Assembly: GCA_038058635.1 (NCBI GenBank)
Contig: JBBUAP010000004.1
Span: 97,196 to 158,783 of the forward strand
Length of the DNA: 61,588 bases
Origin: Patescibacteria group bacterium
Lineage (GTDB): Bacteria > Patescibacteriota > UBA1384 > 2-12-FULL-50-11
Direction of reading: 5' to 3'
The notes beneath the pieces were generated by a model. The model was not told the DNA's origin. It ran no database searches and was given only the letters and a program-made list of their open reading frames with translations. This document shows positions 22,069 to 41,901 of this stretch, piece after piece. Numbering within the stretch: position 1 is the stretch's first letter; each line of letters opens with the position of its first letter. A program made the position numbers and the translations under genes.

Positions 22069-22734
22069 ATGGACCCGAGTCTAAGAGCAACTGTTCAATC
22101 TTTGCGCGCCGAAGGTTTAACCTTTGCCGAGATTAGTAATCGTTTAGGTACTACACTGTCAAAAAGTACCTTGTCCACCTGGTGTCGGGCTATCACACTT
22201 TCGGACAAGCAAGTTGAAAGGATAGAAGCAATAAAAAAGGATAAGTTAGCCCTAAGTCGTACTAAAGCCTTAATAGTCAATAAAATTGCTAGAGAGAAAT
22301 ACTTAACCGAAATAAGTGCGAGATACAGCTACTTACGACCTCAACTAGAGGGTAGTCTAGACTCCTCTTTGATGGTGCTAGCGACTCTCTACTTGACCGA
22401 AGGAAGCAAGCAGTCCGGTAAGCTCACTTTTGGGAATTCAGACCTCCGAATTATAAAATTATTTCTTAAGCTCTTAAGGATATGCTTTAAGATTGATGAA
22501 AGTAAATTCAGATGTACTGTCCAGAGACGAGCCGATCAGAATGATGAAAATTTATTAAGATATTGGTCTCAAGTTACAGGCATTCCCTCTAAGCAGTTCT
22601 ATGAATCTCGAGTTGACCCTAGAAGTGTAGGTAAACACACTCTCAAAGGGGAATACATGGGCGTCTGTCGTATAGATTATTTCTCGGGATACATTTATAA
22701 TGAATTGCGAGTGATCGCGTCATTGATCACGTAG
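22069..22734 (+). CDS. HTH plus LAGLIDADG-like (homing-endonuclease-like) protein
   Basis: N-terminal HTH (LRAEGLTFAEISNRLGTTLSKSTLSTW). LATLYLTEGSK ... is a LAGLIDADG-type motif. The gene abuts tRNA-Ala(GGC). Confidence 0.4.
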   Translation: MDPSLRATVQSLRAEGLTFAEISNRLGTTLSKSTLSTWCRAITLSDKQVERIEAIKKDKLALSRTKALIVNKIAREKYLTEISARYSYLRPQLEGSLDSSLMVLATLYLTEGSKQSGKLTFGNSDLRIIKLFLKLLRICFKIDESKFRCTVQRRADQNDENLLRYWSQVTGIPSKQFYESRVDPRSVGKHTLKGEYMGVCRIDYFSGYIYNELRVIASLIT

Positions 22735-24339
22735 TTTGGGCCCATAGCTCAGTTGGTAGAGCGTCTGGCTGGCAGTCAGAATGTCGTCGGTTCGAATCCG
22801 TCTGGGTCCACCAAACGTGGCATCTTTTCCATTCAGAGGCAAACAACAGGAGTAACAGTCGTGTATTTTGGTGTTCGAATAGCCGGGGTACGCCCATGGC
22901 ACTCCGATAGGAAATATCGAACACAAGAGCACTCTCTTCTGTTCTAGCGACGACTCTTTATAAGTTTCAGCGAGATCCTCGAACTTGGATTTAATAAAGT
23001 TCGCGACTCGCTCGAGGCTATATTTATCGAGCACGGAATCGCTCTGAGCGATCTTGATAAAGGCGATTTTTTCCTCAAGCCGTCTGTTTTGCTCTTTAAA
23101 TACATCATCGGTGTAGATACCGGCCAGATTCTTCTCAATCAGCGCCTGGCGTAGCTCGTAGAGCTTCTTCAGTTCGACCTCAGCTTCTTCACGCTGTTTC
23201 AGTAAGATTGCCGCCCTACCCTTATAAGTTCGACGGATAAAGGCAATTAGCAATTCAATGGCCTTTGGCCTGAGAGAGATTTCTTTGAGAAAATTTATCA
23301 TCAGTTCATCCATATCCTCCATCTTTACCGATGAACCCCTCCCCTTTTTGCAACGTTTGGGACAGAAGTAGTAGCCGAAGCGTCGGTATTTGCCCTTACT
23401 AAACCCACCGGTAAAGGATCGACCACAGATACCACATTTAATAATCCTTCTAAGCGGAAAATTAGGGTTGTTGGGACTCTTTTTAGCTAGCTGTACCGCC
23501 TTACTAGTATTGCGGCCGGTTACTACAGACTGAACACGATAGAAGAGCTCTTCGGTAATCATCGGCACGTGCTGGCCTTTGACCTCTTCGTTATAGGCCG
23601 CCGAGACGATAAAACCGGCGTAGAACTTGTTTTTGAACATCCGTGACATCGTCTGGTTACTAATTAGAGAGACTTTGCCATGATTTCTCTCCCGAACTCC
23701 CTGCTTATTGAGAATTTCGGCCATCTCTCGCAGAGTCGTCGTGCCAGTGCCCATTCGCTCCCAAGCGGCTTTGATCAGATCCCAGTTTTCCGGATCTTTG
23801 GTGCCGTAGCCGCTCTGATTAACATAGCCGAGCGGTACCGGGCCATTTCGTAATCCACATAGGAATCGAGCCTTCATGCCGTTTCTGGTGCGTTCAGAGC
23901 GGATATCGTTATCCATCTGAGCAAAGCCAGCTAGCATTGTTTCGACAAACCTTTCGGTTGGGCTGTTGCCGGTTGGTTCAGAAGCCGAGATGAGGCGGAT
24001 CTCACACTCACTCAACTTTTTCCGAATCGATAAGTAATCCGAAGTCTGGCGGGAGATTCGATCAAGCCGATAAACAATCACCGCGTCAATAATCTTTTTA
24101 TTCTTACGGCAGTATTCGAGCATTCGAATTAGTTCCGGCCGATTCACCGTTTTAGCCGAACGACCCTCTTCCCGGAATATCTCAACGACTTCGTAACCCC
24201 GTTTCTCCGCTTCCTTGTGGCAGATATCCTTCTGGGTATCCAACGAATAATTCTCGACCTGTTCTTCCGTTGAAACTCGCAGGTATACTACCGCTTTCTC
24301 GACTCTCTTCGCCATCAAATCAACGATCTTGTTATCCAT
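22720..24339 (-). CDS. Large serine recombinase (integrase)
   Basis: N-terminal resolvase domain (VVYLRVSTEEQ ... VYRLDRISR), recombinase domain, Zn ribbon (CGICGRSF ... YYFCPKRC) and coiled coil. AGGAGG precedes ATG 24339. The last ~31 codons are antisense to the tRNA-Ala gene. Confidence 0.85.
   Translation of the reverse strand: MDNKIVDLMAKRVEKAVVYLRVSTEEQVENYSLDTQKDICHKEAEKRGYEVVEIFREEGRSAKTVNRPELIRMLEYCRKNKKIIDAVIVYRLDRISRQTSDYLSIRKKLSECEIRLISASEPTGNSPTERFVETMLAGFAQMDNDIRSERTRNGMKARFLCGLRNGPVPLGYVNQSGYGTKDPENWDLIKAAWERMGTGTTTLREMAEILNKQGVRERNHGKVSLISNQTMSRMFKNKFYAGFIVSAAYNEEVKGQHVPMITEELFYRVQSVVTGRNTSKAVQLAKKSPNNPNFPLRRIIKCGICGRSFTGGFSKGKYRRFGYYFCPKRCKKGRGSSVKMEDMDELMINFLKEISLRPKAIELLIAFIRRTYKGRAAILLKQREEAEVELKKLYELRQALIEKNLAGIYTDDVFKEQNRRLEEKIAFIKIAQSDSVLDKYSLERVANFIKSKFEDLAETYKESSLEQKRVLLCSIFPIGVPWAYPGYSNTKIHDCYSCCLPLNGKDATFGGPRRIRTDDILTASQTLYQLSYGPKLRDQ
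22737..22812 (+). tRNA. tRNA-Ala(GGC), CCA encoded
   Basis: Hand-folded: acceptor gggccca/tgggtcc with G3:U70, D arm gctc-agttggta-gagc, anticodon arm tctgg-ctGGCag-tcaga. The T arm gtcgg-ttcgaat-ccgtc has one U:U mismatch. Confidence 0.85.
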
Positions 24340-24341
24340 CA

Positions 24342-24671
24342 CTATCCTCCTTTCAATAATTCTTTTAATGTTAGGCCGTCAAAGGCCTGTTTTTCATAAA
24401 CGTCAAACCAGGAATCAACCAGGCACTGCAGTTCAGTAATAAATATCTCCACCTCCTCATCCGAGAGGTTAGTTGCTACTTCTTGCAAGATCATCCGGGA
24501 TTTCTGGACTTTTGTCTCTTCAGCGGGGGTTGGAAATATTGAGCCTAGCGTCGTATCTAAGGTTTTGTAAGTGGCCGGGCTAATTAGTGGCCGATCAAGC
24601 TCCATCACTGCCGTTCGACCCGAAGTCGGCAGTGAGTCAGCTCGCCTAATTGTTCCTTCGATTATGGTCAT
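24342..24671 (-). CDS. Hypothetical protein upstream of the recombinase (possible accessory/RDF)
   Basis: 109-aa ORF whose stop abuts the recombinase start. No family recognised. Confidence 0.4.
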   Translation of the reverse strand: MTIIEGTIRRADSLPTSGRTAVMELDRPLISPATYKTLDTTLGSIFPTPAEETKVQKSRMILQEVATNLSDEEVEIFITELQCLVDSWFDVYEKQAFDGLTLKELLKGG

Positions 24672-24796: not shown

Positions 24797-24964
24797 ATGC
24801 TGTATAAAAAGTGTCCGAAATGCCGGGGAACAATGATTGGCGTTAAGGAGAAACCTCCTTTTTACCGCTGTTCCCAGTGTAATTATGAGGCCAAAACCAA
24901 AGAAGACATCGACCAACTCGAAACGTATAAAAATAGCCAGATCCCTCGTTCTACTAACCTTTAG
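24797..24964 (+). CDS. Possible 55-aa Zn-ribbon protein (speculative)
   Basis: My own translation is MLYKKCPKCRGTMIGVKEKPPFYRCSQCNYEAK..., with two CxxC pairs. It is below the ORF-track cutoff and converges on and overlaps the RT stop by 11 nt. Confidence 0.3.
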   Translation: MLYKKCPKCRGTMIGVKEKPPFYRCSQCNYEAKTKEDIDQLETYKNSQIPRSTNL

Positions 24965-25904
24965 AAGCGGAAATTAGCTCGCTGGCCACTTTCTTGCTCC
25001 GAACATGCCCGAGATAGCCAAGGAACGACGGCAAACTCTTTTCGTTTCGTCCCGGGTCGGTTCTCGCCTGCCGCAGAAGGATACGCTTAATCCTTTGCAC
25101 CGTTCTAACTCGCGGGACGCTGTGGTGCGGTCGGGCAACATAGCCAACAAAATCCAGGCCCCAACTTAATTTCCGCAAGGTGACTTTATTGGGATGAACA
25201 TTCAGGGCAAGACGCTCCCGCAAAAACCGATTGATTTCGACAAAGTAGCCCATTAGTTCTTCCGGGTTTTGACCAAGCAAAATAAAATCGTCTGCATAGC
25301 GCAAGTAATGTGGGGCATTTAATTTATGCTTAACAAACTTATCGAACCGATCCATATAAACATTGGCAAAGAGCTGGCTCGTTAAATTACCAAGCGGCAT
25401 TCCTTTGCCCGGGAGAACGGCAAAGCTGTCGATAATCTGACTGAGCAGGCGAAACATCCGTTTGTCGCCAACTCGCTCCCTCAACATCGTTTTAAGAATC
25501 TGATGATCGACACTGTCGAAAAACTTCCTAATGTCACATTTAAGCGCCCAGCACGGTTGGGTGTAGTTTTTACTGACTTGTCGGCCGTGGTCAGCTAGCT
25601 CGCGAAAAGCTCGGTGAGTGCCCATGTTTTTACGGCAAGCGTACGAATCAGAAATGAATGTCGCGTCATAAGGCGGGTAAAGGACTTGGTAGATCGCTTG
25701 ATGGACAAGCCGATCGCGGACGCTAGCTTTGCTGATGATCCGGAGTTTCGGATCGGTGATTTGAAACTGCTGATAACCGCCTGGTCGGTATGCATCCTGT
25801 ATCAAATCTCGGTGGAGAGCGAAGATATTATCTTCCAGATTGAATTCAAAAAGCTGAATATCTTCCTTCCGACGCTTACCCTTGCGGTAATTCCCCCACG
25901 CCAA
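24954..25904 (-). CDS. DGR reverse transcriptase
   Basis: RT motifs including RYADDFILL, and the DGR-typical PLGNLTSQLFANVYM (SQ motif). The compact 316-aa size and the adjacent TR/VR pair also fit. Confidence 0.9.
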   Translation of the reverse strand: MAWGNYRKGKRRKEDIQLFEFNLEDNIFALHRDLIQDAYRPGGYQQFQITDPKLRIISKASVRDRLVHQAIYQVLYPPYDATFISDSYACRKNMGTHRAFRELADHGRQVSKNYTQPCWALKCDIRKFFDSVDHQILKTMLRERVGDKRMFRLLSQIIDSFAVLPGKGMPLGNLTSQLFANVYMDRFDKFVKHKLNAPHYLRYADDFILLGQNPEELMGYFVEINRFLRERLALNVHPNKVTLRKLSWGLDFVGYVARPHHSVPRVRTVQRIKRILLRQARTDPGRNEKSLPSFLGYLGHVRSKKVASELISASKG

Positions 25905-25965
25905 AATGAGATTGTCGATTGAGACGATCTGGTCAAAGTCACCCTCATGCAGTAATAATCTTTTT

Positions 25966-26400
25966 ATGGAGAACTTTCCTCAACAACTCCTGGGTGGAGT
26001 ACCAATTACCCAGAAAACTTATGATTTTTACAGAACCCTTCATCTTCAGGTGCAGCGTTTTCCGAAGATTGAGCGTTATGCTACCGGTCAAACTCTCCAG
26101 AACGAGACCCTAGGCTTGCTAAAGTGTCTGCTGGCCGCCTGCCAAACTTCCGGGTCAGTTAAGGCCGGCCACCTAAGTGACGCCAGTCTCCAGCTCGAAA
26201 CGGTCAAGGTTTTTGTCCGGTTGGCATATGACGTTCGCGCCCTAGATCGACGGGCTTACATTCTCTTGCAAGAATTCTTGCAAGAGATCGGCCGGATGCT
26301 CGGCGGCTGGATCAAGTCGACCCAAAAGTCAAACTCCGAACAGTCAAGTACGAGCAAGCAAAATCTCAGCGACAAAGCTGAGACTGAGCTTATTGAATGA
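25966..26400 (+). CDS. Avd-like four-helix-bundle accessory protein, on the opposite strand to RT/TR/VR
   Basis: KTYDFYRTLHLQVQRFPKIERYATGQTL ... LQEIGRMLGGWIKS is the typical Avd / 23S-IVS four-helix-bundle pattern. I prefer the start at MENFPQQ. Confidence 0.75.
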   Translation: MENFPQQLLGGVPITQKTYDFYRTLHLQVQRFPKIERYATGQTLQNETLGLLKCLLAACQTSGSVKAGHLSDASLQLETVKVFVRLAYDVRALDRRAYILLQEFLQEIGRMLGGWIKSTQKSNSEQSSTSKQNLSDKAETELIE

Positions 26401-26504
26401 TCTGCATGCGCAAATCTTCCCTGCCAACAGATAGTTGGCTGTGAATCATCTGCCCCTGCAGCTGTTCTTCGCCAGCATAGCTGACTATGAATAGTGTGAG
26501 ATTT

Positions 26505-26619
26505 CGGGAGAAGGAGACGCCCAGGTTGTCGTTCGAGTTGTCCGGGTTATCGTTGTCGACGTTCAGGCCGTTGGAGTTGAAGTTGCCAGCATAGACCAAG
26601 TTGCCGTCAGATGAACGCT
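26505..26619 (-). repeat. DGR template repeat (TR)
   Basis: 115 bp colinear with the VR. All 14 differences are A (coding-strand sense) in TR against non-A in VR. Confidence 0.9.
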
Positions 26620-26948
26620 CCTTTGCGTTTCCCCAATCAAATCAACGGCACGATGCACTAAGAAGTAGAGACCGTGCCTGTATAACAATGTGGCGGCAGG
26701 CAAAGCTTCTTTGCCACCCGCGCTAGGAAAACGCAAGCAATCTATTAACTACCCCACACGCTCTAGGTGTGAGGGGAGTGTCAGTTCACTCCATTCGGCC
26801 GGAGTGCGTCCGTAAACGCACTCTCAATGGCAGTTGGATTTTAGCAGTTTTTAGGCGCACTGAATAGGGGTAGGGAGGCATTTTCCAAAATTTCGCTCGA
26901 GTCGGCTTCGCCGACACCCCAGTAAACCAAGGATCCAAGGGCCAAGGT

Positions 26949-29066
26949 TCAAGATTTTTGATTGCGGGAGAAGGAGACGCCCAGGTCGTCGCTCGAGATG
27001 TCCGGGTAAGCGTAGTCGACGCTCAGGCCGCGGGAGAGGAAGTAGCCAGCATAGACCAAGAGGCCGTCAGATGAACGCTGATTAGTCCAAGAGTACATCC
27101 CTTCCATTAAACGAGCTCCCTTAGGATGACTGGCTGATATGGCCCTGTTTGCTTCGAAGAATACCGTCGTGTCGTACATCGCCTCAACAGGGGTCTGGCG
27201 GAATAATTGATTAATTTTTAGTTCCGAGAGTTGTTTGGCGGCTTCCTGCCAGTCGGATCCCATTAGTTTCTCAATTGCCCCGCGTTTTGCGTCGAACTCC
27301 TTAATCGCCTCTGTGTACATTCCTCGCAATAGCGGATCGGAAATATCTGGCCCGACTTGAGTGTCGACGTACTTCGCTAACTCGCCAGTTTGCTGAAGGT
27401 AGTTTTTGCTAGTCGAATCCGGAATGACTTCTCGGCTGGTTAAGGCCCAGCCAGAACGGACGGCTTCTTTTTTGAAGAAATCTTCGTCTTTATACCAATC
27501 CCTGTCATAAAGAACCTTACCATCTTTGTCGCGATCAAATTTTGGCTGAAGAATTTGATCCAGTCGTTCCATTGTTAGCGGGTCGCCTCTTTCGTCTTTA
27601 CCTTGACGATAAATAAGAAACTGTCCGAGCTCCTTAGCGCGTTCCAGCTCTTGCTTGGAGAATGGAATTGGCTCGACTTTTTCTAGATCGATTTTAACCC
27701 CCAGTATTTCCGCAACACGATTAGGAGCGATAACCTGATATTCACCCAGAATTCGCTGTGCTTCAGTAACCTGTTCGAGCAGTTCGCCGGTCAAAGGGGT
27801 TGCTTCAACTCTTGATGCCGTCAAGAGTTCTTCCGCGGTTACGGTAGTTTCTCCGAGCCCTTCTCGCTCCGCCCCGCGGCGTTTGGTTTCTTGCTGTGGA
27901 ACAAAAGCGACGTGGCGAATCAGCTCCTCTAGTTTTTGGCGATCGGCGGTGCCCTCCAGCTTGTTGGAGTAATAATAGCGCAACGCTTTTTGGAAGGTCT
28001 CGTTAATATCGCCGTTGTAAAATTGTTGAACGAACTCGGTCACTCGTCGCGGTTCCATCCGGTCATCGTAGCTAAATTTCTGCGGCTGATCGGCGGCTAC
28101 GGAGCGATTGGCAACCATTTCTTTGGCCGCTCGATGAAACTCTTTGTATTTGCCGAGCACTTCTTCGATACCGGGTATTTCTTTGAGCTGTTCGCGTGGC
28201 AGGGCCTGATCTCTGGTGGTTAGGTAGGACTCTTGCGGCACGGCATTGGTATCGGTTTCTTTGGCTAAGCCGAAGAGTACGTCGGTCGAGTAGGAGAAGG
28301 TTTGTTCTGGCAGATTCGTCACCTCTTTCTGGTAATTCCAGCGTCGAAGTTGAGCCGGATCAAGCGGTTCGCGGCCGATAAAACCCTTGCCCGGCGGATT
28401 CGTTAACCCAACAATCTTTGTTTGGTCTTTATTGACCCCGACCGTCTCCGAAGCATCCTCCGAAAGAACAATTTCGCCGTTTCGCTCCAGGGCATCAAGC
28501 ACCTCGTGAAGACGAATGGTGATGTTCGGTGCGGCCGAGTTGTACTCGTCAAGGACGATAATTTTTCTCTTGCCCTCCTCAATCCGTAGGCCTGATGTAA
28601 CTTTACCGTCGGCAAAAATATACTCCGGATCATCAATCCGTTCTCGGTGAGGATTGGGAATATAGCGACCCATCAGATCCTCTACATCGCTGGCGCCGTT
28701 TAGGTTGACATAGTGAACTTCCCAGCCCAGTTCCGCGGCCATTTTACGAACGGTTGTCGTTTTGCCGATACTGGTTCCGCCCTCTAAAAGAATCGGTTCA
28801 CTTTGCAAGAAACTGACGGCAAACTTTTTTTGCAACTCCAACGAAAAGCGGTCTTGGATGTACTTCTCTCCGGCGTAACTTTCTCGCTTCGGTACGAATT
28901 GACTCTCAACATGAGCTTTTTCTAGTCGGACACCCATGTAGGTAACTGAATTCTCATCTTCAACGACCGGCAGGTTTGGTTGTTGTTCGACTTGCTCAAC
29001 TACGGCATCCTGGACGCCGGTTTCTTCAGCCCCAACTTGATTTTCCGGTGATCCTGGTTCAGGCAT
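26949..29066 (-). CDS. DGR target: MoxR-like (AAA_5) ATPase fused to a C-terminal CLec/FGE-like variable domain
   Basis: Walker A LLEGGTSIGKTTT, Walker B IIVLDEYN, and LDPAQLRRW. The C-terminus YSWTNQ...GVSFSR carries the VR. Confidence 0.85.
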   Translation of the reverse strand: MPEPGSPENQVGAEETGVQDAVVEQVEQQPNLPVVEDENSVTYMGVRLEKAHVESQFVPKRESYAGEKYIQDRFSLELQKKFAVSFLQSEPILLEGGTSIGKTTTVRKMAAELGWEVHYVNLNGASDVEDLMGRYIPNPHRERIDDPEYIFADGKVTSGLRIEEGKRKIIVLDEYNSAAPNITIRLHEVLDALERNGEIVLSEDASETVGVNKDQTKIVGLTNPPGKGFIGREPLDPAQLRRWNYQKEVTNLPEQTFSYSTDVLFGLAKETDTNAVPQESYLTTRDQALPREQLKEIPGIEEVLGKYKEFHRAAKEMVANRSVAADQPQKFSYDDRMEPRRVTEFVQQFYNGDINETFQKALRYYYSNKLEGTADRQKLEELIRHVAFVPQQETKRRGAEREGLGETTVTAEELLTASRVEATPLTGELLEQVTEAQRILGEYQVIAPNRVAEILGVKIDLEKVEPIPFSKQELERAKELGQFLIYRQGKDERGDPLTMERLDQILQPKFDRDKDGKVLYDRDWYKDEDFFKKEAVRSGWALTSREVIPDSTSKNYLQQTGELAKYVDTQVGPDISDPLLRGMYTEAIKEFDAKRGAIEKLMGSDWQEAAKQLSELKINQLFRQTPVEAMYDTTVFFEANRAISASHPKGARLMEGMYSWTNQRSSDGLLVYAGYFLSRGLSVDYAYPDISSDDLGVSFSRNQKS
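26965..27079 (-). repeat. DGR variable repeat (VR), the last ~38 codons of the 705-aa target
   Basis: See TR. VR encodes YAGYFLSRGLSVDYAYPDISSDDLGVSFSR, whereas TR encodes YAGNFNSNGLNVDNDNPDNSNDNLGVSFSR. Confidence 0.9.
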
Positions 29067-29487
29067 TTTGGTAGGTTGCCCCCACTCGGGACAAGAAAGT
29101 TAAGCCGGTTTTTTCAATCTCGGCCAGTTCTCGGCGGGTGACGAGCAAAAGGGTGTGGTTTTCTTCGTATTTGGGCGAGAAAATCGCTTTTTGCATTGTT
29201 ACCTGATCGGATACTTCAATCTGGCCGGTCGGGTATTGGACGACGAAATCATAGGCTTGTTTTAGGGTAAATGGGTGATGGTCGTCTAAAACCAGGTAAT
29301 TCTTCGAGCCTTTGTGAGCGGCGTGAATCAGATGATAAACCGACTCCTGCTCGTCGTGGCCAGCTTTGTTCAGTAGCTGACGAAATTGATGAAGCTCTCT
29401 TTCATCTTCGGCAATAATCAACGGTACTTCTTTCGAAAAACCAGACTGGTTGATGAATTCGGCAAATGAGCTTTCGTCGATAGCCAT
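29059..29487 (-). CDS. Hypothetical 142-aa protein coupled to the DGR target
   Basis: Overlaps the start of the target gene by 8 nt. No family recognised. Confidence 0.5.
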   Translation of the reverse strand: MAIDESSFAEFINQSGFSKEVPLIIAEDERELHQFRQLLNKAGHDEQESVYHLIHAAHKGSKNYLVLDDHHPFTLKQAYDFVVQYPTGQIEVSDQVTMQKAIFSPKYEENHTLLLVTRRELAEIEKTGLTFLSRVGATYQNA

Positions 29488-29500
29488 ATCTTTAGTTTAC

Positions 29501-31768
29501 TCAGAATTGGTCATATCCTTCAATGACCTCCCGGATTAACTCGGCTAACTGATCAGCCATTTCTTTAGCATTGACATTAGCCAGACTGTTTGGGTAGTAG
29601 TGAGCGACATGCTCGGTATTCGGGCCGATCCCTAAACCGATTAGCTTTTGGTTGGTTTCTTCCTGAATGCGTCTGACGGCTACCCCCAGTTCATACTCTG
29701 ACCCTGAATGTTCGTGAGAAGGCTCCGGATTACCATCAGAAAGCGGAATTAGAAACTTTTCGGTTGCCCCTTGTTGGGCTAAGCGCTGTGAGGCTTGCCC
29801 CAACGCCCAACCGTCGTCGTTATAGGCCGCTCGGTCGCTAGACACCTCTTGTAGCATACCGCCCATATGATCACGCACTTCATCGGACATGGCCTCGTGA
29901 AAACCCTTGAAGACGTGAATCCGGTCATTAAAGCCGAGGATTTCGTTATCAATTGAGAGTCGATTGAGTACCTCTGATAGGACAATGGCAGCCTTGAAGG
30001 TTTCGTTAATCTTCTGGCCGCGCATTGAACCCGACAGATCGACAAGTAAGCTAATAGCGTAGTCTTTCTCTCGGGGTGTTTCTCTTCGCTCCCAAGCATG
30101 GCTTTCCATGGCCGGTACGTCCTTGGCTTTCTCCTGAATGCGGCGTTTGATATCAATGTGTTTACCAGATCGAAAACCGCTCTCCCAGTTGTGGGCTCGC
30201 CTGGCCACAAAGATTGCTCGCAGATCGTCCTCAAGTTTATCAATTGTCTCTAACACTTCGCGGCGCTTTTCCTCGTAGATATTAGCGTCTTTGTTGATTG
30301 CTTCCTGGGCAAGATCGTGAAACTTGTCGACTTCCTCCTGTTGTTCTGGCGGCAGTGGTGGTCGATCCGTTTGCTCAGCCAATTTTTTACCGACTGTTTT
30401 GGTTCCCGCCGGTTTCCCTTCGTGTTGTTCGGGATCTTGATTGAGTTTGCCCCGCAGCTCTTCTTTGATAGTTTCTTCGAATTGGCGCAACATCTCTTCC
30501 GCTCGCTGTTGCAAATCTTGCTTAACTTCTTCCGGTAGGCTGTCGATATACTCTCGAATTTTTTGTTTGGTTTCTTCGCTAAGTGATTCCAAGTCAACTG
30601 GACCACTAGGTGGTTCCTGGGTTTCCTGTTCGTCGCCTTCAGTGGGTTTGCCTGGCTGATTGTTGTTCTGTTCTTGTTTTTCCTTGGCCTGATCTATTGC
30701 TTGTTGTAAGGCACCTTGCAGCTCTTGCTGTTGCTCGGGTGTTAGACGATCTTTTAATTCTTGTGGCAGTTGGGGTTGTCCCTGCCCGGACTCACCGCCT
30801 TCAACGAACTGCTTTTGTATGTCCCTCATTTGCTGCTCCATTTTCTCATCCTGAATGTCCTCGTCGACGAGTTTTTTGAATTCCGGCCAGATCTCATCTC
30901 GGTTTATTTCGTAGAATGTTTGGGCGTACTTCTTGATCAACTGTTCGCTTTTGTCGGCCTCCTGTCGGGAGGGGTAGCGCCACCAGGCGTCTTGAGCGGA
31001 AGGCAAGGTTTTAGCGACGACTTCTTTGACGTCGTCGGGCAGATCCTCACTAACTTCACCGAACCCCCCGCTTGACTCCTTCAGCCACTGTTTGATGTAC
31101 TCGAAACTGGCTTGCATAAAGCGTGGTTGATGACCGAGCTTATCTTTGGCTTCTACTTTGAGGACTTTTTCTTTTTCTAGCTCAATGTCGTAGGCGACTT
31201 TCATCTGCTCACGAAACTTCGGATAGTTTTCGGCAACGAAATTGTTGACGCGCGGGTCTTCTATAGCGTTCATCATTGCCCCAAATCCTGGCTGAGCCCA
31301 GGTTTCCAAGGGGATAGACTCCATTCTCGAAATTCGCCTGTGACCACCCTCGTGGGAGATGATACAGCGCAGATAATCCATTGGCTGTTCGAGCAAATCT
31401 TTCGGATCGACCCGGATGATGTTGTCCTTAAAATCCCAATGCCAACCAGTACCGGGTTCATTGAGCCGAACGGGAATCTTAAAGTCCTTGCCGATAAAGT
31501 AAGCTAGCGATGAAAGAAGCTTTTGTTTGGTCTCTATCTCTTTTTGTTGTTTCGGGTTGAATTGGGCGAGAACTTCTTTATCCCTGCCCTGCCGGAGCAT
31601 TTGGAGGGTAGTTTCGGGAGTTTGGCGACTCACGAGTGGTTCTGGTTGAGCTTCCGGTCGTTGAAGCTCGGCCACTTCGGGCTGGGCTCCTTGAGAGGGT
31701 AAATTTAACTCTTGCGCTTCGGTGGGCGCTATTGACCCGTCAGTAAATGTCCCCTCATTCCGTTCCAT
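29501..31768 (-). CDS. vWA-domain protein with an N-terminal HExxH metallopeptidase-like region and an acidic coiled-coil linker
   Basis: IISHEGGHRR ... EDPRVNNF near the N-terminus, an E/Q/K-rich centre, and a C-terminal MIDAS LLVDLSGSMRG ... NDDG ... LSDGNPEP. Confidence 0.8.
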   Translation of the reverse strand: MERNEGTFTDGSIAPTEAQELNLPSQGAQPEVAELQRPEAQPEPLVSRQTPETTLQMLRQGRDKEVLAQFNPKQQKEIETKQKLLSSLAYFIGKDFKIPVRLNEPGTGWHWDFKDNIIRVDPKDLLEQPMDYLRCIISHEGGHRRISRMESIPLETWAQPGFGAMMNAIEDPRVNNFVAENYPKFREQMKVAYDIELEKEKVLKVEAKDKLGHQPRFMQASFEYIKQWLKESSGGFGEVSEDLPDDVKEVVAKTLPSAQDAWWRYPSRQEADKSEQLIKKYAQTFYEINRDEIWPEFKKLVDEDIQDEKMEQQMRDIQKQFVEGGESGQGQPQLPQELKDRLTPEQQQELQGALQQAIDQAKEKQEQNNNQPGKPTEGDEQETQEPPSGPVDLESLSEETKQKIREYIDSLPEEVKQDLQQRAEEMLRQFEETIKEELRGKLNQDPEQHEGKPAGTKTVGKKLAEQTDRPPLPPEQQEEVDKFHDLAQEAINKDANIYEEKRREVLETIDKLEDDLRAIFVARRAHNWESGFRSGKHIDIKRRIQEKAKDVPAMESHAWERRETPREKDYAISLLVDLSGSMRGQKINETFKAAIVLSEVLNRLSIDNEILGFNDRIHVFKGFHEAMSDEVRDHMGGMLQEVSSDRAAYNDDGWALGQASQRLAQQGATEKFLIPLSDGNPEPSHEHSGSEYELGVAVRRIQEETNQKLIGLGIGPNTEHVAHYYPNSLANVNAKEMADQLAELIREVIEGYDQF

Positions 31769-31800
31769 GCTTTCAGGTTACAGATTCTTGGAAAACTTTC

Positions 31801-32007
31801 CTAGCGTGACGTATATTTTTCCAGTTTTCCTAACGCTTTGTCTCGGTACTTACTAACGGTCTGGGTGGAAATGTCGAATTTCTGAGCAATTTCATTCACT
31901 GTGTAGTGCCGATCACCTAAACCGTAATACATAACGATAATTATCTGTTCGCTTGGAGTGAGGATAGAAATAAGCTTGCCGTCGTGATCGGATAATAACG
32001 GTTTCAT
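31801..32007 (-). CDS. Sigma-70 region-4-like HTH mini-protein
   Basis: IIIVMYYGLGDRHYTVNEIAQKFDISTQTVSKYRDKALGKLEK. Confidence 0.6.
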   Translation of the reverse strand: MKPLLSDHDGKLISILTPSEQIIIVMYYGLGDRHYTVNEIAQKFDISTQTVSKYRDKALGKLEKYTSR

Positions 32008-32010
32008 TGT

Positions 32011-33363
32011 TTACTGCGGTTTCGTTATATCTTTAATATTGGATTCGTTCATTCTCCACAAGCCGCCTTCTCGTATTAATGTCCAGGTGCCTTCAAACTC
32101 TCCAGTTTTCCATTCCCAGGTTTCTATATTACGCTCAGTGGCGTAAAAGTGAGCGTTAATGACGTTTGGTTTATCGCTTAACTCAACCGATACCAGGCGA
32201 ATGAAAATGGTTTGTTCCAGGCCTTTGGACCAGTTATCGTAAGGCAGTCTGGCTTTACGGCTTGAGGAGTAAAAGTTGTTGTAGGCGCCTAGAATATCCC
32301 CTCCTCCGAGGGTGGTGTAGTACTTAGCAACGACTTCAGCTTGTTCGGATGGGTAACTGAGCTTGATCTCTTGCGGAGTTGCACCCTCGGCCGTTTTAAT
32401 CATCGTCTGGATGCGATCATTGAGCTGGGAGTACTCAATGGCAAAACCGGCGTTTTCTTGCCCCTGCAGTGTCTGGGTGTTCATACCGACGACTTTGCCG
32501 CAGATATCGACCAGTGGACCACCTGAATTGCCCGGAATAATAGAGGCATCAGTTTGGATGAAACTACGATCGTCGTAGTCGTCTAGTGTCAGAGCCGAAA
32601 CAATGCCTTTGGAGATCGTTAGATTCCGACCAAGCGGATAACCGATGGCATAGACTTCGTCGATCGGAATAACTGGTCTTGTGGCTCCGGTAAGAAAGGG
32701 CATGTCGCTATAGTTTGTTATTTTGATCAGAGCGATATCACGCAGAGAGTCGGTAGCAACGACCCTAGCACCGGAGGCAAGGTCTTGATTGCCAAGATAA
32801 ATTTTGGTGATCGGGTTGTGATCAACGACATGATTATTGGTGACAATAAAATTCTTCTCAACAAAGAAACCACTACCAACACCTTCCTCGCCCTCAATTA
32901 GTACGACTGAATCAGAGGCGGTTTGAACATCTGCTTGGCCGCATTTTAGTTCGTAGTCGAGTTTGCCGGTACGATAACCGTTCCAGTACCAAAGAAGAGC
33001 TACGTTAAGAATGAGCGACGCCAAAATGCTAAGTCGCACAACCCATTTACCAGTAAATAATCCGCCTCTCCATAGCCGCTTTATGATCCTAGCGGCTCGG
33101 CGATATGTCTCAGAGCTAGCAATAGTTTTTACGAATCGATTTTCGGTTAGTCTGCCGGAATGGTGCATCGCGTCCTGTCGTTGTGCGTGAATGAAACCTC
33201 TGTAGGCCAGAAATAAAACGAGAATAACTGCACCAATAGTCCCGATAATACTTGGAGCAAATAGTATGATCGCAGCTATTACCAAGATCCATAATAGTCC
33301 GCGTAGGAATCTACGGAAATTAGCCGACATAGGTTTAGTTAGCTTGCTTACAAATTTCTTCAT
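32011..33363 (-). CDS. Membrane-anchored trypsin-like (S1) serine protease with an extra C-terminal domain
   Basis: N-terminal TM helices. The triad context is VTNNHVV / DIALIKI / GNSGGPLVD. Confidence 0.8.
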   Translation of the reverse strand: MKKFVSKLTKPMSANFRRFLRGLLWILVIAAIILFAPSIIGTIGAVILVLFLAYRGFIHAQRQDAMHHSGRLTENRFVKTIASSETYRRAARIIKRLWRGGLFTGKWVVRLSILASLILNVALLWYWNGYRTGKLDYELKCGQADVQTASDSVVLIEGEEGVGSGFFVEKNFIVTNNHVVDHNPITKIYLGNQDLASGARVVATDSLRDIALIKITNYSDMPFLTGATRPVIPIDEVYAIGYPLGRNLTISKGIVSALTLDDYDDRSFIQTDASIIPGNSGGPLVDICGKVVGMNTQTLQGQENAGFAIEYSQLNDRIQTMIKTAEGATPQEIKLSYPSEQAEVVAKYYTTLGGGDILGAYNNFYSSSRKARLPYDNWSKGLEQTIFIRLVSVELSDKPNVINAHFYATERNIETWEWKTGEFEGTWTLIREGGLWRMNESNIKDITKPQ

Positions 33364-34822
33364 ATATTTTCACCATAGCTAATGTATCGAGTTTGCAGTA
33401 CTCACAAAGGTTGTGGAAGAGAGCCTCTTTATCGATATCTTCCTTGCCTTCCAACACCGCCTGCATCCATAGACGTTGAGCAGTTGCGCCGTCACTGACA
33501 TCTAAATCGGTATATTTTAGATCGGGTATTAAAGTCGGCAATACTTTCTTAATAGATGCGCTTCCCATAAAGCCCTTATCTCTAAACCAGCCTTCGGAAA
33601 ACGGTATCATTAAATCTACGATTCGCTCGTTTACGCTCTCCATAAAACCTGCTTGTTCTGGAACGATTTCGCCCAGTAATTTATTACAGCCCTTCTCAAA
33701 AGTTTCGTACCAAACAAGTACCGTCCCCTTATTGCCAATGTCTGCCTTTAGTTGTTTTATTAATGGCTCTGCAGGGTTGGTTTTATCCAGATGTAAATAT
33801 TCTTTGTGCGAAAGCTTTCCATCTGGTTTATCTAATATATGTAATGAATACTGGAACGGCAGCTGGCTGTAAGGCTTTAATCCATCGTAAGGTGGAACCG
33901 TCGAGCTAAGCGTTTCGTAGTCAAAAAAGTAAAGCGGATACTCCAAGCCTTCCAAAAACTTTTTGATGTTGTGTTTACTAACATACCGCTTCCCAGTCTT
34001 GTTGGTTTCTACTTGCCAGCGTTGTTTTGGTTTTAATACAAACTCGTCCGGAATATCTTTGATCTTTTCGATAAGCAGATCTTCTAACTGCCCGATAACC
34101 GCGCTTGGTGTTGCTAGGTTGTAGATACTGTCCTTTTCAAGCGGACCAACCAGACTTTTGTAAATATCTAGCCACTCACTAAAAGCGCCCATCTTGGCGT
34201 AGCGTGGCGAAATATTCGGAATTTCTGGAGAATCTATAGTTTGGAACGCTTGCTGTATGTTCTGCTCGGTAGCTTTTTCCAACGCTCGTACTTCTTTTGT
34301 GATGTCAGTGATCGCCGCAAATTTATTAACGTCTATAACGCCATCTTTAACGAATTGGTTGTTAACGTGTATCACCGAAATATTTCGTACTTTAAGCCCG
34401 GCTTTTTCTAACACTCTTGTCTGAAACGCTAGGTCGTGTTCGTGCTCTGGCTTGGCTTTGGTACTGGCCTTAATCTCGAATAGATCGAAAGTATCTCCCT
34501 CTACTCTTTTGATCACGTCCACAATACAAGTAATGTTTTCAGTTTCGAAACGTCCCTGGAAAATTGTATCTGCTCCGTCTGCCAAAACTTGTTTTGTCCG
34601 CTCCGGCATAGATATATATGTACTGAAATCTCCTTTATCAAACCCAATTCGTATTCCATCTGGGAATATCTGTTCTGCGTATTCTTCAAACAGGTTTCCA
34701 CTGTCGAATATTGCTTGCGTGTTTGCGTCTACTGCCGGTAACTTGCTTTTGTCGTGCTTCTTAAGCCAGAGCCAAGCGGGGTGTTTGAGAAAAAGAAGAT
34801 ACTCACTTTTCGAGAGAGTCAT
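33335..34822 (-). CDS. DUF2779-like (RecB/Cas4-type PD-(D/E)XK nuclease-like) protein
   Basis: N-terminal LSKSEYLLFLKHPAWLWLKK is typical of DUF2779. DLFEIKAST is a nuclease-like core. Confidence 0.6.
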   Translation of the reverse strand: MTLSKSEYLLFLKHPAWLWLKKHDKSKLPAVDANTQAIFDSGNLFEEYAEQIFPDGIRIGFDKGDFSTYISMPERTKQVLADGADTIFQGRFETENITCIVDVIKRVEGDTFDLFEIKASTKAKPEHEHDLAFQTRVLEKAGLKVRNISVIHVNNQFVKDGVIDVNKFAAITDITKEVRALEKATEQNIQQAFQTIDSPEIPNISPRYAKMGAFSEWLDIYKSLVGPLEKDSIYNLATPSAVIGQLEDLLIEKIKDIPDEFVLKPKQRWQVETNKTGKRYVSKHNIKKFLEGLEYPLYFFDYETLSSTVPPYDGLKPYSQLPFQYSLHILDKPDGKLSHKEYLHLDKTNPAEPLIKQLKADIGNKGTVLVWYETFEKGCNKLLGEIVPEQAGFMESVNERIVDLMIPFSEGWFRDKGFMGSASIKKVLPTLIPDLKYTDLDVSDGATAQRLWMQAVLEGKEDIDKEALFHNLCEYCKLDTLAMVKIYEEICKQAN

Positions 34823-38458: not shown

Positions 38459-40116
38459 ATGACTTCGTAATTGTCTTTGCCGATTGAATTGATGAAACAG
38501 GATGTTGGCTTGTCCTTGGTGTTTATCAGGTAAAGGCGTTTCTTTGTTCGTGTCAGCGCGACCAGCATCTGGTAAATTTCGCTCTCGTCCGGAGCGGAAG
38601 TAGTAGGGAGCTTCCCCTGGTCGAATCCTATTAAAAATACGACATCTGCCCCAAGCCCTTTGGATAAAAGTATACTCGTAACTGCGATCTCTAGATTCGC
38701 TAACGGACGTGGGAGGTGGTTAGTCTCTTCTCTTAACTGATTGGTTAGTATTTCCCTATAGTCCAACCTACTGCTGGAGATTAACCCTTCAAGCGAAGCT
38801 ATCGAGCTGTTAGCAATTTTAGTTCTCTCAGATTTAGATTTTTTAGTTAAACCGTTATGTGTTGTGGCAATTTTTTCTGACGTTTTTTTGAAATCCTCTG
38901 GGATAGAATTGATAAAGTTTTGCTTCTCATCTAATGATATCAATATGAGACTTTTTCGAGTTTCCTCGTCCAAGCTCTCTATCATCAATCGCCAAGCCAA
39001 TGTACTCAAAGGACTTTTCTTGAGCAGTTTAAGTCCCTCGATAATATTTGTCTTTAGCTTATAAACGTCATCTGTGAGTTTAGGATTATCGACATGTTTA
39101 AATCCTTTATATCTAAGCTGTTCTGCGATCACGGGGAGTAGATACTTGCACGTCCTAGCTTCGCCAATTACCAATACGGACTTAATCTTCTGACGCTCAA
39201 GAAGCTCGCTCAATTGATGAATAATCTTATTTGCAATGTCCGCAGGAACAACATTTTGCAAAAGAATGATACTGGGGTTCGCCTCGTTATCTTCTTTTTT
39301 CCCGGGAGTGTAGCACAAATATTCTTTTTTTATTCTTTCGTTGCCCAAGTTATTCAGTCCATATGCGTTTGCAATGCGGTGGAATGCGTTAATAATCACA
39401 TCTGTGCAACGAGAACAGAATCTGAGCGTAGTACTTAAATACTCTTCACCCGTAGCCTTATATTTTTCCCGAATAAACTTTGAAAACGAACCCTTGAAGT
39501 CGTAGAGCGCTTGGTCGTCATCTCCTACGATTAATATATTATTCTTTGTTGCTAGCAAGTCGATGAACTTGTCTTCAGTCTCATTCAGGTCTTGATACTC
39601 ATCAACTAAAATTAGATCATAGTCCGACGGAATCTTTTCTGGGAACTTTTCACCAAGCTTCAAAGCGTAGTGAATCGCATCCTTGTCTCCGATTGCCTTG
39701 TAGTAATTGCTCCTCGCTAGATATTCCTTGCTGTCTATTGAAACGTCCCGTAATCCCTGTAACGAGAGGTCGTAAGCAATTACATCATAGATCTGAGGGA
39801 AATATATCCAGCCTTCGCCAAGGAGATCTATCACAAACTTACGTGCGAAGCTGTGTATTGTCCTGGTTTCAGCCAGACCCGCTAGGTCATCAGCAAGCTC
39901 ATCGCATAATTTTCCCATGAAGGTAAGCGCGAGGAACTTTGACTTTCCTTCTTTTTTCTCTTTCCGTATCACTCTTTCAAACAAAAAGCTTTTTCCTGTA
40001 CCGGGTCCAGCGACGACAACCCTTTTTTTATGAACTGAGTTAAGAACCTTAGAGAGATCGTTCTGCCTTTCGGTTTCATGGTCGATTGGCGTCGTCACTA
40101 GCGATTCCGTCGTCAT
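38455..40116 (-). CDS. UvrD/Rep-like SF1 helicase-family ATPase embedded between hsdS and hsdR
   Basis: VVVAGPGTGKS, ILVDEYQDLN, VGDDDQALYDFKG, VVFLIGF and LVALTRTKKRLYLI. ATGA-type 4-nt overlaps occur at both ends. Confidence 0.75.
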   Translation of the reverse strand: MTTESLVTTPIDHETERQNDLSKVLNSVHKKRVVVAGPGTGKSFLFERVIRKEKKEGKSKFLALTFMGKLCDELADDLAGLAETRTIHSFARKFVIDLLGEGWIYFPQIYDVIAYDLSLQGLRDVSIDSKEYLARSNYYKAIGDKDAIHYALKLGEKFPEKIPSDYDLILVDEYQDLNETEDKFIDLLATKNNILIVGDDDQALYDFKGSFSKFIREKYKATGEEYLSTTLRFCSRCTDVIINAFHRIANAYGLNNLGNERIKKEYLCYTPGKKEDNEANPSIILLQNVVPADIANKIIHQLSELLERQKIKSVLVIGEARTCKYLLPVIAEQLRYKGFKHVDNPKLTDDVYKLKTNIIEGLKLLKKSPLSTLAWRLMIESLDEETRKSLILISLDEKQNFINSIPEDFKKTSEKIATTHNGLTKKSKSERTKIANSSIASLEGLISSSRLDYREILTNQLREETNHLPRPLANLEIAVTSILLSKGLGADVVFLIGFDQGKLPTTSAPDESEIYQMLVALTRTKKRLYLINTKDKPTSCFINSIGKDNYEVI

Positions 40117-41883: not shown

Positions 41884-41901
41884 GTAGTTAGTTCGGCAAG
41901 A

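Follow-up and report, generated by a model that had tools for sequence, protein, structure and literature searches.

A predicted retroelement-diversified MoxR-class ATPase travels with a vWA/HExxH protein in a conserved cassette of CPR genomes

Results

Genes and features of the locus

The window analysed here is a stretch of 61,588 nucleotides, in which five open reading frames follow one another on the minus strand, with an 8-nt overlap between the genes of the ATPase and of a 142-aa protein and then gaps of 13, 32 and 3 nt. Strand, coordinates and tight spacing of these ORFs agree with the first-pass annotation. The genes and the features surrounding them are as follows.

22720..24342, minus strand: large serine recombinase with Resolvase and Recombinase domains, ICE boundary (gene call from another assembly)
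22738-22813, plus strand: tRNA-Ala, overlapping the 3' end of the serine recombinase
24954..25904, minus strand: retroelement reverse transcriptase (RT), 316 aa
25906..26400, plus strand: Avd accessory protein, with a likely start at 25966 giving 144 aa; opposite strand to target, TR and RT
26500..26619, minus strand: template repeat (TR), 120 nt with 31 adenines
26960..27079, minus strand: variable region (VR), 120 nt, target codons about 663-702
26949..29066, minus strand: retroelement target, AAA ATPase, 705 aa (Pfam AAA_5, E 5e-12)
29059..29487, minus strand: conserved 142-aa protein with the motif YDFxVQYPTGQ, fold unassigned by search
29501..31768, minus strand: vWA/HExxH adaptor protein, 755 aa (Pfam CobT_C vWA, E 7e-15)
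31801..32007, minus strand: sigma-70 region-4-only protein, 68 aa (Sigma70_r4, E 4.5e-10)
32011..33363, minus strand: membrane-anchored HtrA-like serine protease, 450 aa (Trypsin_2, E 9e-28)

The location of these genes on an ICE, as proposed earlier, was confirmed. The boundary of the element is at the tRNA-Ala/serine recombinase pair, a type IV secretion system adjoins the cassette, and a type I restriction-modification system is also borne by the element.

Adenine-specific diversification of the target gene

The DGR reported by the first-pass annotation is a real retroelement, recognised by its RT, its Avd and its TR/VR pair. The RT matches Pfam RVT_1 (E 1e-21), shows the YADD and LGNLTSQ motifs in its translation, is collinear with the RT of related loci and is 36% identical to the BPP-1 RT. 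Avd was retrieved with both Pfam (bAvd, 3.6e-17) and NCBIfam (DivGenRetAVD, 4.3e-22); its length of 144 aa was also called in another assembly of the same sequence, and its opposite orientation corresponds to the family norm, as observed in 30 loci. TR and VR are 87.5% identical and form a clean pair, with 15 differences that all fall at TR adenines (15/15), 14 of them at codon positions 1 or 2, and with the same GC-rich 3' end in both. No second copy of TR was detected within the window by blastn. The substituted codons (669, 675, 677, 679, 682, 685-687, 690, 692, 694 and 701) are located in or beside the last beta strands in the structure model of the target. Relatives carry a similar signature, the mismatches between TR and VR being at adenines in 17/18, 15/15 and 23/24 instances in the examples taken. 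In loci with two targets a single TR matches both, and in 90%-identity clusters of relatives variation is densest across the last 40-80 residues. As judged from these sequences, the RT diversifies about 12 codons in the last 40 residues of the target by adenine-specific mutagenesis, a signature present here and family-wide.

The cassette could also be an inactive relic, which diversified its target formerly and is now frozen in this genome. One identical sequence of the target gene was found on all the 6-10 contigs bearing it, leaving no sign of ongoing diversification in the sampled population, and the 90% cluster of this target has a single member. However, all ORFs are intact, including the catalytic motifs of the RT, the A-only differences and identical 3' end of the TR/VR pair are preserved, and close relatives of the target are polymorphic in their VR; we consider a relic very improbable.

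The target is a MoxR-class ATPase with a variable C-terminal module

The 705-aa target consists of an acidic, disordered N-terminus (net charge -10 across 40 residues), an AAA_5 ATPase domain (about residues 90-260, plus the lid), a linker and a C-terminal module (about residues 421-705) which ends in the VR. Searches with PDB profiles recovered the midasin AAA (1.5e-30), NorQ and CobS, and Foldseek recovered NorQ (9qh4, 4.7e-11) and CbbQ (6l1q); among viral structures, phage MoxR/CobS-like ATPases matched best. The homologues number more than 400, with lengths of about 700 aa and identities of about 50%, and the few with source names come from Patescibacteria or related MAGs. The Walker A (GGTSIGKTT) and Walker B (LDE) motifs, N223 and the DPAQLRRW motif are invariant across 38 ATPase homologues; the MoxR-type motifs and the acidic N-terminus described by the first-pass annotation were both recovered. 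No membrane-like or signal-like segment was seen in the ATPase, as had been stated for its signal peptide, nor in the 142-aa and vWA proteins. Taken together, these results support a cytoplasmic AAA ATPase of the MoxR class as the diversified protein.

Residues 421-705 were modelled with confidence (means of 10-residue blocks mostly above 93), and the order of secondary structures in the model is CLec-like. Using hhalign, the VR could be linked to the FGE-like tails of sister sub-families with 76-84% probability. No CLec or FGE match for the target C-terminus was obtained with Pfam, with PDB profile searches or with hhalign against Mtd, and only ATPase matches were listed by Foldseek for the target. 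The fold of the variable module may, on this indirect evidence, be CLec-like. The C-terminal module is represented by 948 cluster representatives, and in the best 150 of these its end always coincides with the C-terminus or falls a few residues short of it, whether the module stands alone (about 300-360 aa) or is part of a longer protein. Among the module proteins of more than 860 aa that were scanned, 6/8 contain an AAA_5 domain. This C-terminal module of about 285 residues is autonomous.

Partner proteins encoded upstream

The 755-aa protein comprises a disordered acidic N-terminus, a zincin-like domain with an HExxH motif (139-143), a helical part rich in E, Q and K (about 300-530) and a C-terminal vWA domain (about 565-755). 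Residues H139, E140, H143, E170 and D171, as well as the MIDAS residues D577, S579, S581 and D678, are invariant across 32 homologues, and E, Q, K and D make up 49.5% of residues 300-500; the combination of an HExxH module, a coiled-coil-like region and a MIDAS vWA domain recognised by the first-pass annotation was thus recovered. PDB profile searches matched the vWA domain of CobT (1.8e-15), the midasin MIDAS (1.8e-7) and NorD, and Foldseek listed the NorD VWA and the MIDAS domain of MDN1/Rea1, along with integrin I domains. The HExxH domain, modelled with moderate confidence, had no family match and perhaps is not a peptidase. In the sequences aligned, the ATPase, HExxH and vWA motifs are strictly conserved. 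No Pfam or PDB match was obtained for the 142-aa protein, whether as single sequence or as profile.

Composition of the conserved cassette

A survey of 78 related loci from CPR genomes, with counts given over 66, 74, 75 or 50 of them, was used to determine which genes travel together. The vWA/HExxH gene lies directly upstream and on the same strand in 60/66 loci, and the 142-aa gene directly upstream of the ATPase gene in 66/74. RT is present in 34/50 loci with at least 3 kb downstream, the other 16/50 with enough flank having no RT nearby. The ATPase of the closest syntenic relative is 70% identical, and synteny with this relative breaks exactly upstream of the vWA gene. The conserved unit is made of the vWA/HExxH protein, the 142-aa protein, the AAA ATPase with its VR, TR, Avd on the opposite strand, and RT. 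Of the proposed neighbourhood, the links of the ATPase to the vWA and 142-aa genes held across genomes and those to the protease and sigma-r4 genes did not.

The protease and sigma-r4 genes are not part of the cassette

The first-pass annotation had assigned all five genes to one sensing system, with the variable tail as sensor, the AAA/vWA pair as switch and the trypsin-like protease as effector; a regulatory part would fall to the sigma-r4 protein. The domains named for the last two proteins are those found here by Pfam, the genes are co-oriented and separated by at most 32 nt, other phyla have MoxR-vWA ternary systems of the VMAP type with trypsin-like effectors (PMC7159879, PMC10907252), and PADLOC models contain protease domains to which the protease shows a weak likeness. 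However, equally tight packing extends over the whole run of minus-strand ORFs (about 44.3 to 26.9 kb), and promoter-like and terminator-like sites are no commoner than in shuffled sequence; since the genes of the island are all tightly spaced, the spacing does not point specifically to a five-gene unit. Single-sequence phmmer detected the protease in 1/75 related loci, where about 6 kb separate it from the cassette lying downstream, and did not detect the sigma-r4 gene in any (0/75). The closest syntenic relative lacks a 14.7-kb block in which both genes lie. Three protease relatives were examined; they adjoin restriction-modification genes and a PD-(D/E)XK nuclease and never vWA, AAA or retroelement genes, and the sigma-r4 gene is absent from their loci. 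The protease itself has membrane-like segments, at residues 16-61 and 106-127, joined by a K/R-rich loop; from the positive-inside rule an extracellular catalytic domain is predicted, on the other side of the membrane from the cytoplasmic ATPase. On these grounds the protease was rejected as effector of the ATPase module and belongs with the upstream restriction-modification/PD-(D/E)XK block; the sigma-r4 protein, found in none of the 75 loci and missing in the closest syntenic relative, was rejected as a member. Because the genes are not conserved together, the five-gene reading is largely refuted, and we give it hardly any credence. The MoxR-vWA module stands through the coupling of the ATPase and vWA genes across CPR genomes, without its protease arm.

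Mobile setting

At least 22 loci have mobile-element markers (coupling protein or relaxase, SU10-type portal or capsid, serine recombinase) no more than 10 kb from the cassette, and in 9 loci a serine recombinase is among the genes at this distance. One related cassette has the portal gene of an SU10-like prophage on one side and the major capsid gene on the other, and three IMG/VR viral contigs carry the cassette. The cassette could serve the ICE or phage, and not the cell, in maintenance or takeover, for example by counteracting variable defence proteins of the host or by aiding virion or conjugation assembly; the linkage to an ICE and to recombinases and the likeness of the ATPase to phage MoxR/CobS-like proteins are in favour of such a role. 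However, these contigs are only 3 among 2.9 million, with 0/3 from the sub-family of the window, and most of the 78 loci have no recognisable marker within 10 kb, in a marker search which is insensitive. We regard a service to the element as unlikely.

The variable ATPase might instead bind molecules of the host organism or enter the host, possibly through the type IV secretion of the ICE; it would then adapt the symbiont to changing hosts and not combat mobile elements. CPR retroelements are said to widen the ligand specificity of host-attachment proteins (statement in PMC10221324, citing Paul et al. 2017), a type IV secretion system adjoins the cassette here, and vWA/MIDAS domains are classic adhesion modules, consistent with the integrin I domains listed above. 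But the protein has no signal peptide or membrane anchor, an ATP-driven motor requires cytoplasmic ATP, the nearest structural relatives of the ATPase and vWA proteins are intracellular chaperone pairs, and many copies are in prophage-like contexts without secretion system, making this explanation quite improbable. The mobile-element linkage as such is compatible equally well with defence, counter-defence and host manipulation.

Discussion

With moderate confidence, we take the functional unit to be a cassette of about 6.8 kb (24954-31768), and not a five-gene operon. The cassette belongs to the commonest class of CPR retroelement target and is carried here as cargo of an ICE at tRNA-Ala. By analogy with NorQ-NorD, CobS-CobT and midasin, the ATPase would form a hexamer displaying six variable binding heads, and one vWA adaptor would dock on the ring, where ATP hydrolysis would pull or twist it. 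In published structures, a finger or shaft of the vWA protein enters the MoxR-type ring (PMC13036017; bioRxiv 10.64898/2026.07.21.739949). A cytoplasmic ligand caught by the heads might then be remodelled, or passed to the metallopeptidase-like domain of the adaptor. Most speculatively, the job of the cassette would be the anticipatory recognition of foreign or competing proteins, as a defence of the cell or a weapon of the element, because it is found on ICEs, in prophages and in islands bounded by recombinases. It is from this setting that we infer a defence role; with PADLOC models, the three core proteins had no significant match.

Among known systems, Bordetella phage BPP-1 shares the adenine mutagenesis from TR to a C-terminal VR through RT and Avd, but its target Mtd is a phage tail fibre with no sequence similarity to this cytoplasmic ATPase detectable by hhalign, and the orientation of Avd also differs. 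The chaperone pairs NorQ/NorD, CobS/CobT, CbbQ/CbbO and RavA/ViaA, and midasin, provide the best sequence and structure matches, with adjacent genes and intact Walker and MIDAS motifs as here. What sets the cassette apart from them is the additional hypervariable domain of its ATPase, the zincin-like domain at the N-terminus of its adaptor and the absence of a client enzyme gene (CobN, NOR, Rubisco) from the locus; the core proteins scored 17.8 bits for NCBIfam CobS against a cut-off of 558 and 28.8 for CobT against 759.

The VMAP ternary systems (Kaur et al. 2020, PMC7159879; PMC10907252) likewise bring together, at one locus, an ATPase of the MoxR class, a vWA protein and a lectin-type domain diversified by a retroelement, and sensing is predicted to be cytoplasmic in them too. 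Their variable domain is on the vWA protein, whereas here it is on the ATPase. Our loci conserve neither a VMAP protein nor adaptor domains, nor an effector of the caspase, TIR or trypsin type, and their vWA protein has an HExxH domain instead. They are enriched in multicellular bacteria, while the hosts of this cassette are ultra-small symbionts. In published work, the majority of RTs from CPR retroelements fall into a separate clade, apart from VMAP-type systems (PMC10907252, PMC8144416).

The closest class is that of the CPR AAA-ATPase/CLec variable proteins (Paul et al. 2017, as cited in PMC10907252). Dore et al. (2024, PMC10907252, citing Paul et al.) describe an AAA ATPase fused to a CLec tail as the commonest CPR retroelement target and propose that the ATPase transduces signals detected by the C-terminus, and the CPR 'UVR4' targets carry a midasin-type AAA (Wu et al. 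2018, PMC5758913). The vWA/HExxH adaptor and the 142-aa partner are not mentioned as constant companions in these papers; Paul et al. 2017 may have described them. The first-pass annotation overstated the novelty of the system, as the AAA/CLec class is already reported there. As far as these accounts describe it, an N-terminal AAA_5/midasin-type ATPase, a C-terminal VR, a CPR host and a non-canonical Avd/TR arrangement are features of that class and of this locus alike, and nothing essential differs between the two.

Organization of the locus

The five minus-strand ORFs that the first-pass annotation described as a single operon are all present, and Pfam backs four of them, the exception being the 142-aa protein. 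From the protease gene to the AAA gene the spacings are 3, 32 and 13 nt, followed by an 8-nt overlap, which agrees with the coupling by overlaps or gaps of less than 35 nt that had been described. A promoter and terminator scan returned sites no commoner than in shuffled sequence and was therefore unable to define transcription units.

Features of the locus (window positions)
32011-33363, minus strand: protease, 450 aa (Pfam Trypsin_2, 9e-28)
31801-32007, minus strand: sigma-r4 mini-protein, 68 aa (Pfam Sigma70_r4, 4.5e-10)
29501-31768, minus strand: vWA protein, 755 aa (Pfam CobT_C vWA, 7e-15)
29059-29487, minus strand: 142-aa protein (no Pfam match)
26949-29066, minus strand: AAA protein, 705 aa (Pfam AAA_5, 5e-12)
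26960-27079: variable region (VR), 120-nt repeat with 15 differences from the template repeat
26500-26619: template repeat (TR), 120-nt repeat
25906-26400, plus strand: accessory protein Avd, intact (bAvd 3.6e-17, DivGenRetAVD 4.3e-22)
24954-25904: reverse transcriptase (RT), intact (RVT_1 1e-21)

The retroelement is a genuine diversity-generating retroelement. All 15 TR/VR mismatches fall at TR adenines, 14 of them in codon positions 1 or 2, and phage retroelement RTs, BPP-1 Brt included, share 36-37% identity with the RT. Among relatives, TR-VR mismatches are likewise found almost exclusively at adenines, and the variable columns of related ATPases, counted within 90%-identity clusters, are densest in the last 40-80 residues. 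No variants of the window's own ATPase were present among the database sequences, and neither a second VR elsewhere in the window nor a convincing GC-rich hairpin directly downstream of the VR was found.

The RT and Avd genes point away from each other, and no more than 61 nt (25904-25966) separate their likely starts. They lie on opposite strands in 30 related loci. As members of the family normally show this opposite orientation, a recent inversion of avd was ruled out. The TR is placed beyond Avd, so that any TR-RT co-transcript would have to cross avd antisense; this layout is also the family norm.

The VR-bearing protein is a MoxR-type ATPase

More than 400 homologues of the ATPase were recovered at E<=0.001. 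They are about 700 aa long, about 50% identical, and share a common architecture with an AAA_5/midasin-type N-terminus and the VR at the extreme C-terminus; the source names, given for few of them, were Patescibacteria or related MAGs. A profile of the family searched against the PDB matched midasin AAA domains (1.5e-30), NorQ and CobS. The AlphaFold2 model (mean pLDDT 77.9) gave Foldseek matches to NorQ and CbbQ (the top matches) and to dynein AAA modules, as well as to phage MoxR/CobS-like ATPases in the viral structure library BFVD. Walker A, Walker B, the sensor-1 residue N223 and the arginine motif DPAQLRRW are invariant in 38 ATPase sequences. Together with the AAA_5 match, these motifs and the NorQ/CbbQ matches bear out the assignment of the VR-bearing protein to the MoxR type. 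A hydropathy scan detected no membrane or signal segment in this protein, for which the lack of a signal peptide had been claimed, nor in the 142-aa and vWA proteins.

A variable module at the C-terminus with a possible CLec fold

The first-pass annotation had given the protein a CLec/FGE-like C-terminus. Residues 421-705 were modelled confidently by AlphaFold2, the means of 10-residue blocks being mostly above 93, in the order beta, alpha, alpha, beta, a helical insert and then three to four strands. In the model this order is CLec-like, as in a CLec fold that carries an insert; the codons substituted in the VR lie in or beside the last strands. Searches for known relatives of the module were negative. 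For the full-length model, a Foldseek comparison with PDB and BFVD gave only ATPase matches among the 50 matches listed; ten C-terminal modules had no CLec match in Pfam at E<=10; a profile of 37 C-termini searched against the PDB did not match solved CLec proteins; and hhalign of the C-terminus against BPP-1 Mtd and Vibrio phage VP58.5 gp18 was negative.

Sister sub-families have the ATPase in common and differ in their tails, some of which read "EWNLL...GWG...YEWT...GFRVAVVL". We take these tails to be FGE-like; their Pfam and PDB profile searches gave no confirming match. The VR region of the window was linked to them by hhalign at 76-84% probability, which lends indirect support, at the level of profile alignment, to a possible CLec/FGE-type fold of the variable module.

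At E<=1e-3 the module was found in 948 cluster representatives. Among the best 150 of these it ends at the C-terminus or within a few residues of it, and its context is mostly a stand-alone protein of 300-360 aa or a longer protein; six of the eight scanned module proteins of more than 860 aa contain an AAA_5 domain. Judged from this distribution, the variable C-terminal module is autonomous. Many related loci also have a second, stand-alone target for which the same TR serves as template. It is about 330 aa long and corresponds to ATPase residues ~420-705 (loci L005, L007, L017, L022, L028, L029, L035, L070 and L076; for example L007:12043-13104), and is sometimes sited between the vWA and 142-aa genes. 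The window is without such a stand-alone gene.

The vWA and 142-aa partners

The family of the vWA protein runs parallel to that of the ATPase. Its profile matched the CobT vWA domain (1.8e-15), the midasin MIDAS domain and NorD in the PDB, and structural matches of its model were the NorD VWA and the MDN1/Rea1 MIDAS domain. The protein terminates in the vWA domain. Invariant residues are the HExxH motif (139-143), E170/D171 and the MIDAS residues (DxSxS and a downstream D). The HExxH region, which had no Pfam match in ten orthologues at E<=1, is predicted to form three short strands and then the helix that bears the motif, a zincin-like arrangement. The 142-aa protein matched nothing in Pfam or the PDB, even when searched as a 36-sequence profile.

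Three proteins and the retroelement form the conserved unit

A scan of one genome per species yielded 78 loci, and the window proteins were searched against all their ORFs. The vWA gene was directly upstream on the same strand in 60 of the 66 loci with enough flank, and elsewhere in the locus in 5 more; with the intact Walker and MIDAS motifs, this adjacency upholds the MoxR-vWA pairing that had been claimed. The 142-aa gene was directly upstream of the ATPase gene in 66/74 loci, and an RT was found within the locus in 34 of the 50 having at least 3 kb downstream. The protease was recovered in one locus out of 75 (E 9e-12), about 6 kb upstream of the cassette, and the sigma-r4 gene in none of the 75. 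When 1,975 flanking ORFs were clustered, no further partner recurred broadly: TR-derived ORFs aside, none was present in more than 7 loci, and the most recurrent of the remainder were lineage-specific phage or HTH genes. The proposed gene neighbourhood is thus kept for the ATPase, vWA and 142-aa genes but not for the protease and sigma-r4 genes.

The closest syntenic relative, L003, has an ATPase 70% identical to that of the window and shares both the vWA-to-RT block and an ICE backbone (coupling protein, relaxase, Fic). Missing from it is the 14.7-kb segment at window positions 46386-31678, which contains type I restriction-modification, the UvrD-like helicase, HD_4, DUF2779, the protease and sigma-r4. 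The candidate system narrows to a compact transferable cassette of about 6.8 kb (24954-31768), which consists of the three proteins with RT, Avd and TR. The sigma-r4 gene, which had been counted as part of the system, is an orphan.

The protease belongs with the restriction-modification genes

The protease had been considered a possible effector. It has about 38 close homologues, aligned over ~70-98% of its length, and membrane segments at 16-61 and 106-127 in the hydropathy scan. Because the loop between these segments is K/R-rich, the positive-inside rule suggests that the catalytic domain faces outward. All three relatives that were inspected have restriction-modification genes and a PD-(D/E)XK nuclease as neighbours, and vWA, AAA, retroelement and sigma-r4 genes were not found near any of them.

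Gene context of the protease in three related loci
L091: HsdR, DUF6994, protease, HD_4, DUF2779
L092: MmeI-type methylase, PDDEXK_1, protease, ParB, recombinase
L093: methylase, ResIII, PDDEXK_1, protease

The protease gene of the window shares a 29-nt overlap with the DUF2779 (Cas4-like) gene. From this overlap, the gene context of the relatives and the outward topology, the protease belongs to the upstream restriction-modification/PD-(D/E)XK block. As an effector it was a misleading lead, being predicted to face outward and encoded in the segment absent from L003; the evidence points to a separate, recurring pairing of protease and nuclease beside restriction-modification genes. The membrane-anchored protease and the PD-(D/E)XK nuclease (DUF2779/PDDEXK_1; 32011-33363 and 33335-34822 in the window, respectively) may be an undescribed restriction-modification accessory pair.

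Two contigs of independent assemblies with the same sequence, L081 and L082, end within or just beside the protease gene. These ends hint at strain heterogeneity or at a junction between the variable block and the retroelement cassette. The type I restriction-modification genes (35630-44295) are interrupted between hsdS and hsdR by extra genes, encoding a GIY-YIG/DUF4357 protein (41902-42738), a 204-aa protein (41269-41883) and a UvrD-like helicase (38455-40116).

Mobile-element setting

An ICE occupies the window between tRNA-Ala (22738-22813) and position 61.1 kb or beyond. Its genes encode two large serine recombinases, a Replic_Relax relaxase, a TrwB/TraG-type coupling protein, an M23 peptidase, and type IV secretion proteins (VirB2-like pilins, PrgI, VirB4/TraC). 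The cassette is accordingly carried by an ICE, as had been said, on the basis of the tRNA-Ala with serine recombinase, relaxase, coupling protein and type IV secretion genes. One large serine recombinase ORF (22720-24342, minus strand) runs at its 3' end antisense through the plus-strand tRNA-Ala(GGC). This tRNA gene is apparently the integration site of the element, and tRNA sequence encodes the C-terminus of the recombinase; the tRNA segment has no second copy within the window. The VirB4/TraC-type ATPase is apparently split into two overlapping ORFs (55413-56030 and 56011-57789); the split may be due to a frameshift or reflect two genuine genes.

Elsewhere the cassette was found in an SU10-like prophage, flanked by the portal and capsid genes, or next to an amidase and a recombinase. 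At least 22 loci have a mobile-element marker within 10 kb of the cassette, and it occurs on only 3 IMG/VR contigs. The portal/major-capsid siting is seen in one sister sub-family (L086 6214-20351; L037, L039-L042, L088-L090), which also has a gene for a 520-aa HEPN protein immediately before the vWA gene. This HEPN-vWA adjacency may stem from a common phage ancestry and not from a link in function.

Proposed mechanism and comparison with known systems

The first-pass annotation was largely correct in what it observed and half right in its interpretation: the sensor-motor-adaptor idea and the ICE setting stand, while the protease and the sigma-r4 protein fall outside the system and its novelty was overstated. 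NTPase-linked retroelement targets had been described. The locus belongs to the known class of CPR AAA-CLec variable proteins: Wu et al. 2018 (PMC5758913) reported a cassette architecture specific to CPR, with midasin-type AAA domains in the "UVR4" targets of these bacteria, and Dore et al. 2024 (PMC10907252) suggested that the ATPase of CPR retroelement targets is a transducer. In the accounts of this class consulted here, with Paul et al. 2017 represented by the papers that cite it, no mention is made of the vWA/HExxH and 142-aa proteins as constant partners.

These ATPases are the commonest CPR retroelement targets, and their motor residues, like the MIDAS and HExxH residues of the partner, are strictly conserved. 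In recently solved structures a finger or shaft of the vWA partner enters the MoxR-type ring, and ATP drives twisting of the adaptor (PMC13036017; bioRxiv 10.64898/2026.07.21.739949). By analogy with these ring structures, we infer hexamer formation, complex formation and peptidase activity: the ATPase hexamer would display six variable heads, would be coupled to one vWA/zincin adaptor, and with it would act on cytoplasmic ligands. Conflict is the most likely biological role given the mobile-element setting, and is the weakest step of the proposal. It is conceivable, if rather unlikely, that the three conserved genes form a self-contained machine, in which a MoxR hexamer with six hypermutable heads works through a vWA adaptor with a built-in zincin protease, the retroelement re-programmes substrate choice, and ICEs and phages have carried the whole into dozens of CPR lineages, where it serves either as an anticipatory immune receptor in the cytoplasm or as a weapon of mobile elements. 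The recent NorQ-NorD and CobS-CobT structures give a concrete mechanical model for the cassette, which makes heterologous reconstitution and ligand hunting practical.

Cobaltochelatase CobS/CobT was considered and rejected, since the NCBIfam scores were far below the cut-offs (CobS 17.8 bits against 558, CobT 28.8 against 759) and no CobN was found in the window or the related loci. With PADLOC 2.0 models, the ATPase, vWA and 142-aa proteins gave only noise at E>=1e-3, and only the protease matched, to generic protease domains. The VMAP ternary systems encode a VMAP protein with MoxR and vWA, whereas here the five proteins had no match to a VMAP/effector-adaptor family (Pfam, E<=0.01) and the only third conserved gene beside MoxR and vWA is that of the 142-aa protein. 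In VMAP systems the variable lectin-type domain is on the vWA protein and the VMAP protein has effector domains (Kaur et al. 2020, PMC7159879; PMC10907252); in the present cassette the VR is on the ATPase. If the three conserved genes do form the self-contained machine described above, they would make up a class of their own in mechanism, apart from the VMAP systems with their vWA-fused variable domain, in organisms that are often without other adaptive systems.
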